Virus genome (UHGV): UHGV-1593002
DNA length: 17,928 bases
From: a virus
Strand: one strand, 5' to 3'
The notes beneath the pieces are model-generated. The model did no database searches, had not been told where the DNA came from, and saw nothing but the letters and a program-made list of their open reading frames with translations. A program made the translations under genes and the position numbers. The first letter of the stretch is position 1. Each line of letters opens with the position of its first letter. Positions 2,364-17,928 of this stretch are shown here, one piece after another.

Positions 2364-4921
2364 CGTCCACCTCCGGAGAACAGACCACCATCACGCATCT
2401 GTGTCTGAATTTCATCACGGGCACCCTTGCGGGCCATGTCATACACCGCCTTCAGAGCAGCCGGACCTATCTGCCCGTTCGTGCCGTCGTTGTTAATCAC
2501 CACATGGTTATTCTGCTCAAACGTCCCGGACGCCTGCGACCGGCTGTCTGCCATGCTGCCCGGTGTACCGACATAACCGCCGGTGGCATAGCCGCGCATC
2601 AGCCGGTAAAGATTCCCCACGCCAATCCGGCTGGTTGCCTCCTTCGTGAAGACAAACTCACCACGGTGAACAATCCCCGCTGGCTCATATTTGCCGCCGG
2701 TTCCCGTAAATCCTCCGGTTGCAAAATGGAATTTCGCCGCAGCGGCCTGAATGGCTGTACCGCCTGACGCGGATGCGCCGCCACCAACAGCCCCGCCAAT
2801 GGCGCTGCCGATACTCCCGACAATCCCCACCATTGCCTGCTTAAGCAGAATTTCTGTCATCATGGACAGCACGGAACGGGTGAAGCTGCGCCAGTTCTGC
2901 TCACTGCCGGTCAGCATCGCCGCCATATTCTGTGCAATACCATCAAAGGTCTGCGTGGCTGCACTTTTTACCTGCGACATACTGTCCGTGGCGCTCTCTT
3001 CCCACTCACTCCAGCCGGACTTCAGGCCTGCCATCCAGCTCCCGCGAAGCTGGTCTTCAGCCGCCCAGGTCTTTTTCTGCTCTGACATGACGTTATTCAG
3101 CGCCAGCGGATTATCGCCATACTGTTCCTTCAGGCGCTGTTCCGTGGCTTCCCGTTCTGCCTGCCGGTCAGTCAGCCCCCGGCTTTTCGCATCAATGGCG
3201 GCCCGTTTTGCCCGTTGCTGCTGTGCGAATTTATCCGCCTGCTGCGCCAGCGCGTTCAGGCGCTCCTGATACGTAACCTTGTCGCCAAGTGCAGCCAGCT
3301 GGCGTTTGTACTCCAGCGTCTCATCTTTATGCGCCAGCAGGGATTTCTCCTGTGCGGACAGCTGGCGACGTTGTGCCGCCTCCTCCAGTACCGCGAACTG
3401 ACTTTCTGCCTTCCACAAATCCCGGCGCTGCTGGCTGATTTTCTCATTCGCTCCGGCATGCTTCTCCAGCGTCCGGAGTTCTGCCTGAAGCGTCAGCAGG
3501 GCAGCATGAGCACTGTCTTCCTGACGATCGCCCGCAGACACTTTCACGCCGGACTGTTTCGGCTTTTTCAGCGTCGCTTCATAATCCTTTTTCGCCGCCG
3601 CCATCAGCGTGTTGTAATCTGCCTGCAGGATTTTCCCGTCTTTCAGTGCCTTGTTCAGTTCTTCCTGACGGGCGGTATATTTCTCCAGCGGCGTCTGCAG
3701 CCGTTCGTAAGCCTTCTGCGCCTCTTCGGTATATTTCAGCCGTGACGCTTCGGTATCGCTCTGCTGCTGCGCATTTTTGTCCTGTTGAGTCTGCTGCTCA
3801 GCCTTCTTTCGGGCGGCTTCAAGCGCAAGACGGGCCTTTTCACGATCATCCCAGTAACGCGCCCGCGCTTCATCGTTAACAAAATAATCATCCTTGCGCA
3901 GATTCCAGATGTCGTCTGCTTTCTTAAACGCAGCCTCTGCCTTAATCAGCATCTCCTGCGCGGTATCAGGACGACCAATATCCAGCACCGCATCCCACAT
4001 GGATTTGAATGCCCGCGCAGTCCTGTCTGCCCAGGTCTCCAGCGTGCCCATGTTCTCTTTCAGGCGGCGGGTCTGGTCATCAAACCCTTTCGTTGCGGCC
4101 TCGTTCGCCGCCTGCAATGCCCCGGCTTCATCGCCGGAACGCTGCAACTGAGCAACATACGCAATCTGCTCCGCCGTCACGTTATGGAACTGGCGTGCCA
4201 TCGCCGTCAGCCCCGACGTCGGGTCTGTGGTCAGCTTCCCGAAGGCTTCAGCGACCTTGTCCACCTCCACGCCGGATGCAGAGGAGAAACGCGCCACACT
4301 CTGGCTGATGGACGCAATCTGAGCCTCACCGCTTACCCCCGCCTTAACCAGTGCGCTGAGTGACTCGCTGGTCTGGTTAAACGTCAGCCCTGCCGCCTGC
4401 CCGGCTCTGGACAGGACCAGCATACGATCTGCCGTCAGACCCGACTGATGACCGGAAAGGACCAGCGTTTTGTTGAAATCGGACAGGGTTGAGTTGCCCT
4501 GATACCAGGCATACGCCAGCGCACCGGTCGCCACCGCCAGCGAGGTGGCCCCCACCATCGGCAGGGTGATCGCACCGGCAAGCCCCCTGAACATGGGGAT
4601 CATCCCGCCGAAGGAGTCCTTCACCTGCCCCCCCTGTTGCAGCAGGATCAGCCACGGACTTTGCCCGCCTGCAAGCTGCGTGGCCACGTCAGTGAACTGC
4701 GCAGGCAGCATACGCATGGCAGCTTTATACTGCCCGACGGAAATCCCCGCTTTCTGTGCAGCCAGCGCCTGTCGGCTCAGCGACTGTTCAACGACTGCCG
4801 CTGTTTTTTTCGCATCACTTTCCGTACCGGAAAAATGACGCCTGACTCTGGCCATCTGCTCGTCAAATCTGGCCGCATCCAGACTCAAATCAACGACCAG
4901 ATCGCCTACCGGTTCAGCCAT
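2360..4921 (-). CDS. H: Tail tape measure protein H (lambda gpH-like), 853 aa
   Basis: 853-aa ORF, the length of lambda gpH; long coiled-coil-like central region rich in A/Q/E/K/R and Gly-rich C-terminal segment; overlaps T by 8 nt as in lambda. Confidence 0.95.
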   Translation of the reverse strand: MAEPVGDLVVDLSLDAARFDEQMARVRRHFSGTESDAKKTAAVVEQSLSRQALAAQKAGISVGQYKAAMRMLPAQFTDVATQLAGGQSPWLILLQQGGQVKDSFGGMIPMFRGLAGAITLPMVGATSLAVATGALAYAWYQGNSTLSDFNKTLVLSGHQSGLTADRMLVLSRAGQAAGLTFNQTSESLSALVKAGVSGEAQIASISQSVARFSSASGVEVDKVAEAFGKLTTDPTSGLTAMARQFHNVTAEQIAYVAQLQRSGDEAGALQAANEAATKGFDDQTRRLKENMGTLETWADRTARAFKSMWDAVLDIGRPDTAQEMLIKAEAAFKKADDIWNLRKDDYFVNDEARARYWDDREKARLALEAARKKAEQQTQQDKNAQQQSDTEASRLKYTEEAQKAYERLQTPLEKYTARQEELNKALKDGKILQADYNTLMAAAKKDYEATLKKPKQSGVKVSAGDRQEDSAHAALLTLQAELRTLEKHAGANEKISQQRRDLWKAESQFAVLEEAAQRRQLSAQEKSLLAHKDETLEYKRQLAALGDKVTYQERLNALAQQADKFAQQQRAKRAAIDAKSRGLTDRQAEREATEQRLKEQYGDNPLALNNVMSEQKKTWAAEDQLRGSWMAGLKSGWSEWEESATDSMSQVKSAATQTFDGIAQNMAAMLTGSEQNWRSFTRSVLSMMTEILLKQAMVGIVGSIGSAIGGAVGGGASASGGTAIQAAAAKFHFATGGFTGTGGKYEPAGIVHRGEFVFTKEATSRIGVGNLYRLMRGYATGGYVGTPGSMADSRSQASGTFEQNNHVVINNDGTNGQIGPAALKAVYDMARKGARDEIQTQMRDGGLFSGGGR

Positions 4922-11045: not shown

Positions 11046-14726
<3,681 letters not shown>

Positions 14727-14752
<26 letters not shown>

Positions 14753-15272
14753 TCAGCAACCCCGGTATCAGTTCATCCAGCGCGGCTGCTTTGTTCATGG
14801 CTTTGATAATATCCCGTTTCAGGAAATCAACATGTCGGTTTTCCAGTTCCGGAAAACGCCGCTGCACCGACAGGGGGAGCCCGTCGAGAATACTGGCAAT
14901 TTCACCTGCGATCCGCGACAACACGAAAGTACAGAATGCGGTTTCCACCACTTCAGCGGAGTCTCTGGCATTCTTCAGTTCCTGTGCGTCGGCCTGCGCA
15001 CGCGTAAGTCGATGGCGTTCGTACTCAATAGTTCCTGGCTGGAGATCTGCCTCGCTGGCCTGCCGCAGTTCTTCAACCTCCCGGCGCAGCTTTTCGTTCT
15101 CAATTTCAGCATCCCTTTCGGCATACCATTTTATGACGGCGGCAGAGTCATAAAGCACCTCATTACCCTTGCCACCGCCTCGCAGAACGGGCATTCCCTG
15201 TTCCTGCCAGTTCTGAATGGTACGGATACTCGCACCGAAAATGTCAGCCAGCTGCTTTTTGTTGACTTCCAT
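14727..15272 (-). CDS. Nu1: Terminase small subunit Nu1 (lambda gpNu1-like), 181 aa
   Basis: 181-aa ORF starting MEVNKKQLADIFGASIRTIQNWQEQGMPV (winged-HTH N-terminus), immediately downstream of cosB. Confidence 0.95.
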
Positions 15273-15289
15273 TGTTCATTCCACGGACA

Positions 15290-15449
15290 AAAACAGAGAA
15301 AGGAAACGACAGAGGCCAAAAAGCTCGCTTTCAGCACCTGTCGTTTCCTTTCTTTTCAGAGGGTATTTTAAATAAAAACATTAAGTTATGACGAAGAAGA
15401 ACGGAAACGCCTTAAACCGGAAATTTTTCATAAATAGCGAAAACCCGCG
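15290..15449. promoter_or_regulatory. cosB: terminase (Nu1) binding region with three R elements and an AT-rich putative IHF bend
   Basis: Three copies of the CGTTTCC core (15302-15308 and 15403-15409 as GGAAACG, 15342-15348 as CGTTTCC); the two inner copies form an inverted repeat (GAAAGGAAACGACAG / CTGTCGTTTCCTTTC) flanking AT-rich DNA; located between cosN and the Nu1 start. Confidence 0.7.
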
Positions 15450-15461
15450 AGGTCGCCGCCC
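15450..15461. other. cosN: the 12-bp lambda cohesive-end sequence (joined form)
   Basis: Plus strand AGGTCGCCGCCC is the reverse complement of the lambda cohesive end GGGCGGCGACCT; the flanking sequence matches the lambda left and right termini as I recall them. Confidence 0.85.
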
Positions 15462-15467
15462 CGTAAC

Positions 15468-15495
15468 CTGTCGGATCGCCGGAAAGGACCCGCAA
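15468..15495. promoter_or_regulatory. cosQ region (approximate)
   Basis: Placed by position only, about 15-30 bp on the right-end side of cosN where lambda cosQ lies; the motif itself was not verified. Confidence 0.4.
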
Positions 15496-15660
15496 AATGA
15501 TAATAATTATCATCTGCATGTCACAACGTGCATCTACGCCATCAAACCACGTCAAATAATCAATTATGACGCAGGTATCATATTAATTGATCTGCATCAA
15601 CTTAACGTAAAAACAACTTCAGACAATACAAATCAGCGACACTAAATACGGGACAACCTC

Positions 15661-15894
15661 ATGTCAACGAAGAACAGAACCCGCAGAACAACAATCCGCA
15701 ACATCCGCTTTCCTAACCAAATGATTGAACAAATTAACATCGCTCTTGATCAAAAAGGGTCCGGGAATTTCTCAGCCTGGGTCATTGAAGCCTGCCGCCG
15801 GAGACTGTGCTCAGAAAAAAGAGTTTCTCCTGAAGCAAACAAAGAAAAGAGTGACATTACTGAATTGCTCAGAAAACAGATCAGACCAGATTGA
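15661..15894 (+). CDS. ylcI: Ribbon-helix-helix DNA-binding protein, YlcI/YnfO (DUF3950)-like, 77 aa
   Basis: MSTKNRTRRTTIRNIRFPNQMIEQINIALDQKGSGNFSAWVIEACRRRL fits an RHH fold (beta strand TIRNIRF, helix NQMIEQINIALDQ, turn GSGN, helix FSAWVIEACRRRL) and matches my recollection of the DLP12 prophage protein YlcI, which lies next to the Nu1 homologue nohD. Confidence 0.65.
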   Translation: MSTKNRTRRTTIRNIRFPNQMIEQINIALDQKGSGNFSAWVIEACRRRLCSEKRVSPEANKEKSDITELLRKQIRPD

Positions 15895-15950
15895 AGCAAT
15901 TTAGATAATCGTGCAGACTACGCCCCTCATATCACATGGAAGGTACCACA

Positions 15951-16361
15951 ATGGCTCAGGTTGCCATTTTTAAACAAATATTCGATAAAGTGCGAAATAA
16001 TTTAAACTATCACTGGTTTTATTCTGAACTAAAACGTCACAATGTCTCACATTACATTTACTATTTAGCTACAGAGAATATTCATCTTGTTCTTGAAAAC
16101 GATAATACGGTTTTAATAAAAGGACAGGGTAAGGTTGTAAATGTAAGATTTTCAAAAAATAAATGCCTTATAGAAGCCACCTTAAAAGGATTCAAATCAG
16201 GAGAGTTATCATTTTACGAATACAGGAAAAATCTTGCTACAGCAGGGGTTTTCAGATGGATTACAAATATCCACGAAAACAAAAGGTATTACTATACCTT
16301 TGATAATTCATTACTCTTTACTGAGAACATTCAGAACACTACACAAATATTTCCGCACTAA
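15951..16361 (+). CDS. Hypothetical prophage moron protein, candidate DUF1398 (YbcV/YdfO-like), 136 aa from the second ATG
   Basis: ORF 15936-16361; the second ATG at 15951 has GGAAGG 7 nt upstream. Markedly AT-rich compared with the late genes; 56 nt downstream of the YlcI-like gene on the same strand. Family assignment is from memory and unverified. Confidence 0.55.
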
Positions 16362-16406
16362 ATCATAACGTCCGGTTTCTTCCGTGCCAGAACCGGACTC
16401 GCTGGC

Positions 16407-16571
16407 ATGATGAAATATGTGTACCCGGTAACCCCGGTGTGCATCGTTTTTGATTATTCCCGCACACTCGCGCAGAAGGAGTTCCCCGTCGGGCTACGGT
16501 CTCTGTTAATACGGGAATACGGCGACGATACAGCGCATGATGTGTCAGGCTTGAATACCTTTATCCTTTAA
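16407..16571 (+). CDS. Hypothetical small ORF, 54 aa (MMKYVYPVTPVCIVFDYSRTLAQKEFPVGLRSLLIREYGDDTAHDVSGLNTFIL)
   Basis: Uninterrupted 55-codon frame with ATG start, found by hand (below the ORF-track length cut-off); lies between a perfect 8-bp hairpin (16372-16399) and a plus-strand terminator; no convincing RBS. Confidence 0.2.
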   Translation: MMKYVYPVTPVCIVFDYSRTLAQKEFPVGLRSLLIREYGDDTAHDVSGLNTFIL

Positions 16572-16617
16572 AAGGGATATCAGTTAAGTTATCCCGTGTA
16601 GGGTATAAACCATTATC

Positions 16618-16647
16618 AAAGCCACTCTGTAGGAAGTGGCTTTTGTA
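16618..16647 (+). terminator. Putative rho-independent terminator (plus strand)
   Basis: AAAGCCAC - 10-nt loop - GTGGCTTT stem followed by TTTTGTAAT; no T-run on the opposite strand. Confidence 0.5.
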
Positions 16648-16650
16648 ATG

Positions 16651-16680
16651 GCAATAAAAAGCCCCGCGAATGCGAGGCTA
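16651..16680 (-). terminator. Putative rho-independent terminator (minus strand)
   Basis: Minus strand AGCCTCGC-ATTC-GCGGGGCT (8-bp stem with one G-U pair, 4-nt loop) followed by TTTTTATT; about 27 nt downstream of the small ORF that follows Rz. Confidence 0.6.
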
Positions 16681-16706
16681 AATCCTGGTATTTGTAATGA
16701 CTGGTT

Positions 16707-16856
16707 CTTATCTCAACGCAGCCCCTTACCGCGCGCAAAATGCTCAATATCAAGCATCAGCAATGAGATGTTTAATCTGGATTCACTCCAGAAGTGAGCA
16801 CCACCCTGTCTACAGAGCCAGATGTGAAGGATGATGAGTAAAATTATCGCTATCAT
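16707..16856 (-). CDS. Hypothetical small protein, 49 aa, hydrophobic N-terminus ([47 protein letters not shown])
   Basis: ATG overlaps the Rz TGA stop in an ATGA arrangement (translational coupling); ORF is followed by the minus-strand terminator; found by hand, not on the ORF track. Confidence 0.3.
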
Positions 16857-17320
16857 CGAAGGCATTGCGTCCTGATGTATTCCTGAAGCGTTCTCAGTGC
16901 TGTTTGGTCGCGGATAATTCCGTCCCGGATACCGAGAACGTTTCGTCCAGCAACTGGAGAGAGTTCGACGGTGGCATCATTGCCCATGCCGGAGGCGCTG
17001 GAGGTTTCGGCTGAGGATGGCACAGGGCATTTTCCTTTGACGAGCACCCGACCACCATTATCAAGCTTGCGCCGAAGAGCATCATTTTCAGCTTTCGCAT
17101 CAGCTAACTCCTTCGTGTATTTATCATCGAGTGCATCAGCATCACGCTGGCGCTGCTGCATGTCAGTAATGGTGGCGTTCGCCTTCTCCAGTTCACTGGC
17201 CTTGTTATCACGCTGTTCTTTGTAGGCGATTGCATTATCACGGTAATGATTAACAGCCCATGACAGGCAGACGATGATGCAGATAACCAGAGCGGAGATA
17301 ATCGCGGTTACCCTGCTCAT
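16853..17320 (-). CDS. Rz: i-spanin Rz, 155 aa from the ATG at 17320
   Basis: N-terminal TM anchor ([26 protein letters not shown]) followed by a charged coiled-coil-like region; ATG overlaps the endolysin TGA stop (ATGA); contains the embedded Rz1 frame. The ORF-track start at 17332 is a GTG and was rejected. Confidence 0.85.
16894..17100 (-). CDS. Rz1: o-spanin Rz1 (outer-membrane lipoprotein), embedded in the +1 frame of Rz, 68 aa
   Basis: [21 protein letters not shown] contains a signal-peptidase II lipobox (VVGC); Pro-rich mature region ([16 protein letters not shown]); entirely inside Rz in a different frame. Confidence 0.8.
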
Positions 17321-17810
17321 TGTTGCCCCCACAAACAGACCTCACGCTCAATCTCACGACGAGTCATCAGGCCTTTCCATTGCTTACCGCCAGCGTATGC
17401 CCAGCGACGTAGCTGGTCACATGCGCCCTTGATATCGCCCTGGTTTATTTTGCGAAGAAGAGTAGATGTTCTGAAATTGCCTGCGCCCACGTTATAGACG
17501 AACGAGTAAAGAGCGCCGCGCGTTGTTTCCGGTATATCGACTTTGATGTACGGGTTAATTTGTCTGGCTACCGTGGCAAGGTCTTTATTCAGGAGGGCTT
17601 TGCATTCTGCTTCGGTATACGTTTTACCGGGAATGATGTCTTTTCCTGTATGCCCGTGACATACAGTCCATACGCCAACGATATCTTTGTATGGTATGTA
17701 GCTGACACCTTCCAGACCATCGTTACCACTTGGGCCAGTGATTAACACTGATGCTATAGCAATTGCTCCGCCACCAATAGCAGCAGCAACGGCTTTTCGT
17801 AATGATGGAG
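17317..17810 (-). CDS. R: SAR endolysin (phage 21 R / DLP12 RrrD-like lysozyme, GH24), 5' end interrupted by IS2 at about codon 2
   Basis: Gly/Ala-rich weakly hydrophobic SAR segment ([23 protein letters not shown]) followed by a T4-lysozyme-like E-x8-D-x5-T catalytic motif ([16 protein letters not shown]). The in-frame 5' extension to a TTG at 17838 lies inside the IS2 terminal repeat, so the native start codon and RBS are missing. Confidence 0.8.
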
Positions 17811-17928
17811 TAGACTGGCCCCCTGAATCTCCAGACAACCAGTATCACTTAAATAAGTGATAGTCTTAATACTAGTTTTTAGACTAGTCATTGGAGAACA
17901 GATGATTGATGTCTTAGGGCCGGAGAAA
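17811..17928 (+). mobile_element. IS2 insertion sequence, left end (IRL) and first 118 bp; element continues beyond the window
   Basis: TAGACTGGCCCCCTGAATCTCCAGACAACC... matches the IS2 left terminal inverted repeat as I recall it, and 91 bp later the InsC (OrfA) start MIDVLGPEK begins. Confidence 0.85.
17902..17928 (+). CDS. insC: IS2 transposase OrfA (InsC), N-terminal 9 codons only (truncated by window end)
   Basis: ATG ATT GAT GTC TTA GGG CCG GAG AAA = MIDVLGPEK, the N-terminus of IS2 InsC, preceded by GGAGAA as RBS. Confidence 0.8.

Follow-up and report, generated by a model that had tools for sequence, protein, structure and literature searches.

The 17,928 nucleotides of DNA that were analysed (the window; virus genome UHGV-1593002) represent the late region of a lambda-type phage or prophage, in which the structural, packaging and lysis genes are all located on the minus strand. 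An ORF survey placed every long chained ORF of the window on this strand. On the plus strand, between cosN and Rz, a pair of ORFs runs antisense to the late genes (Table 1), which raises the question whether these two genes form one functional module. The original prediction, made from the sequence alone, had described them as an AT-rich moron encoding a ribbon-helix-helix (RHH) protein of the YlcI type and a DUF1398-like protein, and had proposed a toxin-antitoxin, superinfection-exclusion or anti-phage module. The arrangement itself was borne out. ORFs and RefSeq annotation agree on two co-directional genes of 77 and 136 codons separated by a spacer of 56 nt (15895–15950), and the strand of the long chained ORFs and the location of cosN place them antisense to the late genes, between Rz and cos.

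Table 1. Features of the late region around the ylcI and DUF1398 genes (positions in the window)
Feature	Position	Strand	Basis and remarks
Terminase large subunit	12827-14752	-	ORF
nu1	14727-15272	-	ORF
cosN, cohesive-end sequence AGGTCGCCGCCC	15450-15461		Read from the sequence; the region shares homology with the ends of lambda
Perfect palindrome ATGATAAT-A-ATTATCAT	15497-15513		Sequence comparison; between cosN and ylcI
ylcI/ynfO-type gene, 77 aa	15661-15894	+	ORF, profile matches, RefSeq/PGAP annotation of identical DNA
PdhR-box-like sequence AACAGATCAGACCAGAT	15875-15891		Comparison with the sites listed in PMC7660256; 3' end of ylcI
-10-like hexamer GATAAT	15904-15909	+	Consensus match only; no recognisable -35
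DUF1398 (YbcV/YdfO-type) gene, 136 aa, pI 9.4, GC 31%	15951-16361	+	ORF, Pfam, RefSeq
Conserved non-coding segment, ~170 nt	16370-16540		Alignment with lambda and YYZ-2008
Terminator-like hairpin with U-tract	16618-16646	+	-24.1 kcal/mol for a 66-nt stretch, z = -4.2
Intrinsic-terminator-like hairpin with T-run	16660-16679	-	Downstream of Rz; z = -3.3
Rz	16853-17332	-	ORF; Rz1 lies inside Rz
R (endolysin)	17317-17838	-	ORF

The cosN sequence is the reverse complement of the left end of lambda, and it marks the right end of the virion DNA, approximately 200 nt upstream of ylcI. The feature had been predicted to start at position 15500. The genes do extend to 16361, but 15500–15660 is cos-proximal non-coding DNA of approximately 160 nt. 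The G + C content of the DUF1398 gene (0.311, with a GC3 of 0.30) was far below that of the entire window (0.552). For ylcI it was 0.436, only moderately lower than the window, and 0.48 in the first 150 nt, which are the conserved part of the gene. With 0.311 versus 0.436 for the two genes, the term AT-rich describes chiefly the DUF1398 gene.

The cassette is not new. Many complete E. coli chromosomes contain the segment 15300–16850 (1.55 kb) with 100% identity, and the family names are already annotated there; in such a chromosome, PGAP names the 77-aa product a YlcI/YnfO family protein. Some match to the segment was found in 4899 of 5426 E. coli genomes. Among phages, it was 99.3% identical in phage Kati; in lambda, HK629, HK630 and DE3 the identity was approximately 88%, across three quarters of the segment. 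Lambda, HK629 and E26 carry both gene types. The two genes are the standard right-end ylcI/ynfO and ybcV/ydfO genes of lambda, Qin and DLP12.

In lambda, the homologous DNA runs from cos through the DUF1398 gene plus approximately 190 nt. The order in that phage is a ylcI-like ORF (48157–48303, unannotated in NC_001416), the ybcW-like gene lambdap79 on the opposite strand, the DUF1398 gene lambdap78, and then bor. The YlcI core and the DUF1398 protein of lambda are 96% and 76% identical, respectively, to those of the window. DLP12 (ylcI-ybcW-ybcV) also has an opposite-strand ybcW-like gene between the pair, and this gene, the lambdap79 neighbour of lambda, is absent from the window. The statement that the pair occupies the position where lambda carries bor was imprecise, as lambda itself has both homologues and bor is located further downstream. 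In the window bor is missing; its slot consists of approximately 300 nt with convergent terminators, and the -10 element of lambda p_bor is not conserved there. Qin (nohA-ynfO-ydfO) has members of both families beside the nu1/noh packaging gene, with order and orientation as in the window. Its YnfO shares the tail type of the 77-aa protein of the window, and its YdfO is approximately 76% identical to the DUF1398 protein of the window in a structure alignment. Qin is a decayed cryptic prophage, whereas the late region of the window is intact.

HMM searches confirmed both family assignments. The 77-aa protein scored 74.7 bits against Pfam DUF3950 (PF13132, cut-off 25) and 35.7 against NCBIfam YlcI_YnfO_N (NF041551, cut-off 30), and it also matched phrog_949. 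Among homologues, residues 1–50 are near-invariant (MSTKNRTRRTTxRNIRFPNQMIEQINIALDQKGSGNFSAWVIEACRRRL), and the C-terminal tail is variable and lineage-specific. The conserved block is short (150 nt) and ends abruptly at codon 50, like a mosaic junction, which could mean that the ylcI ORF is no protein gene at all but a conserved DNA element, for instance a sequence at a module boundary or for recombination. The substitutions argue otherwise. Comparison of the first 50 codons with those of the Stx phages YYZ-2008 and JLK-2012 gave a pS of 0.49–0.67 and a pN of 0.06–0.10 (pN/pS 0.10–0.16), so that the differences are overwhelmingly synonymous. Between lambda-type and Stx-type loci, homology begins exactly at the ATG of ylcI. 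In addition, curated Pfam and NCBIfam families exist for the protein. The synonymous bias and the start of homology at the ATG indicate that ylcI is a genuine protein-coding gene on which purifying selection acts strongly, and we consider the DNA element hardly credible.

Residues 1–50 of YlcI consist of a basic arm and a predicted RHH core with a pI of 11.5, which fits the predicted binding of nucleic acid. This part of the protein could be aligned without gaps to Arc of phage P22, with RNIRFP opposite FNLRWP, KGSGNFS opposite NGRSVNS, an equal P-x14-G spacing, an Arc-like turn (G-S-G-N in YlcI), and N14 and R16 opposite N11 and R13 of Arc. Like Arc and Mnt of P22, YlcI has an N-h-R-h-P strand motif that lies 14 residues from the glycine turn, a basic arm at its N-terminus and, as predicted, a core of two helices. 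An AF2 monomer model showed an extended N-terminus and helices at 19–32 and 34–53, with a core pLDDT of 82–85. hhalign placed the strand and helix A in the Arc register, but with a probability of only 3%, and gave no alignment of the YlcI alignment with CopG. The best Foldseek matches of the model were of the RHH type (TCP domains, Reg576 and Arc, 1par), every one with an E-value above 1. Searches of the PDB by sequence and by profile yielded no relevant match for YlcI, and neither Arc nor Mnt reached a significant sequence or fold score. A further difference from these repressors is that the window has no ant-type target gene. An Arc/Mnt-like RHH protein is the best reading and a plausible one, judging from the model and the alignment, although the fold searches fall short of proof.

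The second gene can be read from two starts. The longer ORF (15936–16361) encodes 141 aa; the internal ATG at 15951, which gives 136 aa, is preceded by the Shine-Dalgarno sequence GGAAGG (15938–15943), 7 nt upstream, and is the start that RefSeq/PGAP uses for the DUF1398 protein in the identical chromosome. The product matched PF07166 (DUF1398) with 147 bits (cut-off 22) over profile positions 1–119 of 119, and it closely matches the solved YdfO structure 2HH8, which places it within the YdfO fold. This fold is a duplicated helix-helix-strand-strand-strand module that is found only in YdfO; a fold search revealed no relative among known toxins. YdfO 2HH8 was solved by NMR as a single chain. 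On inspection, no signal peptide or hydrophobic segment was seen in either protein sequence, from which both products are judged to be cytoplasmic and the DUF1398 protein to be soluble. Two existing labels, 'head protein' for PHROG 413 and 'putative envelope protein' for lambdap78, were rejected, as nothing was found that supports either.

A type II toxin-antitoxin system was one form of the proposed module. In this reading YlcI, as an RHH antitoxin, would repress the operon and use its C-terminal tail to neutralise a toxin encoded by the DUF1398 gene. The layout agrees with this, since a small RHH gene comes first and a larger gene second, both on one strand. In ParDE, RelBE, KacAT and FitAB, too, the gene of a small RHH-like protein that is extended at its C-terminus precedes a larger gene, and these systems gave weak structural matches. 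Moreover, the tail of YlcI differs between loci with different downstream DNA. The distribution of the genes argues against such a system, as they are not inherited as a unit. Of the phage records, 154 encode the YlcI core, as against 43 for DUF1398. The complete E. coli genomes gave 7950 places for the ylcI core, spread over 3777 genomes, and 3411 for the DUF1398 gene, spread over 2717. Solo loci occur both ways. The Stx phages YYZ-2008 and JLK-2012 carry ylcI alone, in antisense orientation, with the lysis genes on one side and an HNH-TerS-TerL packaging module on the other; no DUF1398 lies within 3 kb, and no downstream ORF runs in the same direction. DUF1398 was found without YlcI in six contexts. 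Among these, its neighbour in a Flavobacterium chromosome is a small ORF of the CxxS thioredoxin-like type, and MetQ and adenosine deaminase genes accompany it in metagenomic contigs; ycgX of E. coli adjoins bluR/bluF, and in another phage the gene lies between Q and holin. A locus search with a single distant DUF1398 protein returned one Flavobacterium locus only.

Apparent YlcI-DUF1398 fusions (P0134 and P0130) resembled Rosetta-stone evidence for a link between the two proteins, but they have W at the position of the TGA stop or contain internal deletions, and were read as gene-calling artefacts. Many of the ENA contigs of approximately 3.5 kb are probably noisy reads of lambda control DNA.

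Nor do the two genes form a tight bicistronic operon. The 56-nt gap contains a separate -10-like element, a PdhR-like box lies close by, and in lambda and DLP12 the two genes are separated by a gene on the opposite strand. In addition, the downstream protein resembles no known toxin fold, and overexpression of its homologues is tolerated. Overexpression of ybcV in an ASKA screen gave viable, glycogen-deficient cells (PMC2853380). YdfO was presumably overproduced alone for the NMR structure, and for neither protein was lethality reported. We therefore regard a toxin-antitoxin system as very improbable. From the sequence comparisons, the evidence indicates that ylcI and the DUF1398 gene are independent accessory genes and not one functional module. 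The label moron suits them unequally. It fits the DUF1398 gene, with its atypical G + C content (0.31 against 0.55) and its variable presence (43 against 154 phage records), but ylcI is far less atypical (0.44) and much more constant. Some functional coupling, for example by read-through co-transcription, is possible, because all lambda-type phages that have DUF1398 carry ylcI upstream of it on the same strand.

The non-coding DNA of the cassette was compared in the same way. The palindrome between cosN and ylcI is kept in lambda-type cos-proximal DNA only. It is missing at the ylcI loci of Stx phages, so it was rejected as a YlcI operator and is probably cos-associated. Only weak promoter-like matches were present in the cassette, and no convincing sigma-70 promoter was found upstream of ylcI. 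The PdhR-box-like sequence at the 3' end of ylcI differs by one base from the gSELEX-derived PdhR site between ynfO and ydfO of Qin; it reads GAT in place of the GGT of Qin, and may therefore bind poorly. The hexamer GATAAT in the spacer is also present upstream of the lambda DUF1398 copy, and is, from its sequence, a candidate activator-dependent promoter of the DUF1398 gene. The homology between lambda and the window, which is broken by the ybcW insertion in lambda, resumes at the PdhR-like box, and the DUF1398 gene thus appears to bring its own control region.

Downstream of the DUF1398 gene, the conserved segment has its counterparts upstream of bor in lambda and downstream of the solo ylcI in Stx phage YYZ-2008. 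Its alignment showed substitutions without synonymous bias, and frame-breaking indels in lambda. A 54-aa ORF at 16407–16571 was rejected as a gene, with approximately 4 synonymous and approximately 7 non-synonymous differences from YYZ-2008 and with its frame broken by the lambda indels. The layout is consistent with a conserved frame of ylcI and this segment that received the DUF1398 gene as an insertion, with or without ybcW. The plus strand hairpin beyond it is likely to be the 3' end of the plus strand transcripts of the cassette, and the minus strand hairpin downstream of Rz converges on it. A search of 15200–17000 against Rfam at a permissive threshold gave chance-level matches only.

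A full-text search of the literature on both families, including the names ybcV, ydfO, ylcI and ynfO, found no functional study. Incidental data are available; those on expression come from homologues in K-12 cryptic prophages and in O157, and not from the prophage of the window. gSELEX placed PdhR peaks both between ynfO and ydfO and in the spacer of ybcV and ybcW, and in a pdhR mutant ybcV mRNA is down 10-fold (PMC7660256). Overproduction of T4 MotB, which is reported to alter H-NS-dependent repression, raised ybcV and ybcW of DLP12 more than 1000-fold (PMC7827196). In K-12 RNA-seq data the ybcW and ylcI transcripts are convergent and overlap (PMC12288877), and O157:H7 shows differential expression of a DUF3950 gene of 228 nt (PMC7709258). 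Lambdap78 was non-essential by CRISPRi (PMC10695390). Ionic liquid transiently induces ydfO (PMC4077768). The same paper states that YdfO overexpression confers resistance to oxidative stress. The work it cites names YfdK, YfdO and YfdS of CPS-53, without ydfO in the main text, and we have treated this claim as a confusion of names.

The location beside cos could itself be the clue to function. YlcI might aid packaging or injection, or the cassette might be transcribed very early, from the end that enters first. The right end of lambda DNA is packaged last and injected first, and the cassette reads inward from it. ylcI is also antisense and adjacent to the packaging genes whether these are of the lambda Nu1/A or of the unrelated HNH-TerS-TerL type. 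Against this, the DUF1398 gene of lambda is non-essential, the cos-proximal palindrome is missing from Stx-type loci, and no promoter is evident. Furthermore, an antisense gene would collide with late transcription just when packaging takes place. A function tied to cos is consequently quite unlikely in our view.

Superinfection exclusion, defence against phages or anti-defence by one or both proteins was weighed as well. Lysogenic-conversion genes, bor among them, are found in the slot that separates the lysis genes from cos, and the cassette is extremely widespread among E. coli prophages. In addition, a 2026 preprint on DUF4062 NADase defence names lambdap79 six times, with the word 'escape'. 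However, searches with the PADLOC-DB 2.0 models gave no match for YlcI and only a chance-level one for DUF1398 (Csx23, E = 0.025). No paper was found that ties either family to phage resistance, the sole mention in a phage-resistance study being an incidental gene loss. Distant DUF1398 members are located in ordinary chromosomal contexts and not in defence islands. We judge a role of this kind unlikely, though slightly less so than one tied to cos, and a defence role for the two genes together is unsupported. The independent distribution, the intervening gene in lambda and DLP12, the lack of a PADLOC match and the tolerated overexpression together speak against a toxin-antitoxin pair and lend no support to a paired defence module.

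We somewhat favour the explanation that the locus holds two separate, non-essential accessory genes of lambda-type prophages, a probable YlcI regulator and AT-rich DUF1398 cargo, both in the variable DNA that separates the lysis genes from the right cos end. Residues 1–50 of YlcI would most likely form an Arc/Mnt-like RHH dimer, reading DNA through the R-N-I-R-F-P strand (N14 and R16) together with the basic N-terminal arm. YlcI would then be a stand-alone transcriptional regulator, made by the prophage and antisense to the late operon. Its target should be conserved too, since the residues that would read the DNA do not vary between unrelated phage backgrounds. The DUF1398 gene would have been acquired horizontally and placed downstream of ylcI, with a regulatory region of its own that comprises the putative PdhR box and the -10 element. 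By analogy with the K-12 homologues, it may be silenced by H-NS and switched on by PdhR, the pyruvate sensor of the host. The protein itself probably binds a host component and shifts host physiology without killing the cell. Among known systems, bor and lom of lambda are likewise antisense or independent late-region genes with an atypical composition and a terminator-like end; they encode envelope proteins, whereas the two products of the window are predicted to be cytoplasmic.

A bolder version of these roles, in which YlcI is a conserved 'guardian' repressor of the prophage and DUF1398 a conversion factor of a novel type, seems to us rather unlikely. The invariant head of YlcI and its fixed antisense site at the junction of lysis and packaging genes would suggest a common operator across lambdoid phages, and YlcI could possibly silence late or terminase expression, or an antirepressor, in the lysogen. 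DUF1398 would be an unrecognised effector with a unique fold that, once freed from H-NS silencing by PdhR, would couple the metabolic state of the host to phage exclusion or altered carbon storage.

The practical outcome is negative, in that the locus offers no new toxin-antitoxin or defence module. It is an ordinary cassette, carried by lambda itself, by most E. coli prophages and by considerably more than half of the complete E. coli genomes that were searched. The interest that remains lies in the two families, which are functionally blank despite their presence in the best-studied phage and one solved structure. The strong purifying selection on YlcI, and its constant position across unrelated packaging modules, may point to a conserved piece of lambdoid phage biology that has been overlooked.

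Three loci, namely the window (downstream of the DUF1398 gene), lambda and the Stx phage YYZ-2008, share a conserved segment of some 170 nt (see the table for the coordinates of all features). In lambda the segment lies upstream of bor and takes in the annotated p_bor region; in YYZ-2008 it lies downstream of a solo ylcI. Comparison of the three copies showed no coding signature, and the -10 of lambda p_bor is not kept in the copy of the window. The segment may be a module-boundary or regulatory element.

In both Stx-phage loci, ylcI is divergent to an HNH endonuclease gene at a distance of 41 nt, followed by TerS and TerL. Because the Stx-phage ylcI adjoins HNH-TerS-TerL, ylcI keeps its antisense place beside two packaging modules that are unrelated to each other. 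In both of these loci, genes for Ant or KilA-N lie 1-1.5 kb away.

Two convergent terminator-like hairpins separate the + strand cassette from the end of Rz in the window, whereas in lambda this slot is occupied by bor. Rfam also gives a weak hit for STnc560, an sRNA of Salmonella (20.6 bits versus a gathering score of 55), that overlaps the - strand terminator; this hit is most likely due to chance. On the other side of the cassette, some 40 nt in from the right cos end, lies a perfect palindrome that is conserved in lambda-type DNA and that the ylcI loci of Stx type lack; when the window was shuffled 200 times, only 7 of the shuffled sequences contained any match at up to 2 mismatches. The ORF of 85 aa across cosN is probably not a gene; the short version in lambda starts at a GTG, which is ATC in the window.

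Features in the window, in lambda (L003) and in the Stx phages YYZ-2008 (L010) and JLK-2012 (L011)
Feature	Locus	Position	Strand	Remarks
Conserved segment	Window	16370-16540
Conserved segment	L003	1665-1830
Conserved segment	L010	about 3400-3590
ylcI/HNH endonuclease region	L010	2594-3228
ylcI/HNH endonuclease region	L011	2429-3201
Palindrome, 8+1+8	Window	15497-15513		ATGATAAT-A-ATTATCAT
ORF, 85 aa	Window	15388-15645	+	spans cosN; C-terminal half matches phrog_9395
Terminator-like hairpin	Window	16618-16646	+	z = -4.2
Terminator-like hairpin	Window	16679-16660	-	z = -3.3
STnc560 match	Window	16590-16781	-
lambdap79 (ybcW-like)	L003	754-960

The ybcW-like gene lambdap79, which we take to be lambda 47738-47944 in NC_001416, sits between the ylcI-like ORF and the DUF1398 gene of lambda; a gene of this type is absent from the window. 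In a bioRxiv preprint on DUF4062 'NIR' NADase defence (September 2026), lambdap79 is named six times and 'escape' is used eight times.

The only published 'function' of YdfO is resistance to oxidative stress upon overexpression (PMC4077768). This appears to be a mis-citation, as the source cited for it (PMC3105296) reports YfdK, YfdO and YfdS of CPS-53. The family of the gene at 15951-16361 is labelled 'head protein' in PHROG 413 and its lambda member, lambdap78, is annotated as 'putative envelope protein'; no support for either label was found in sequence, structure or the literature retrieved.

Two database proteins (P0134 and P0130) are apparent DUF3950-DUF1398 'fusions' with a W at the position of the TGA stop, consistent with gene prediction under a genetic code in which TGA=Trp. 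In addition, many ENA contigs with these families are noisy, measure 3.4-3.6 kb and look like nanopore lambda control DNA. Together, the 'fusions' and the noisy contigs of about 3.5 kb make the DUF3950 and DUF1398 families seem more diverse, inflating their apparent diversity.
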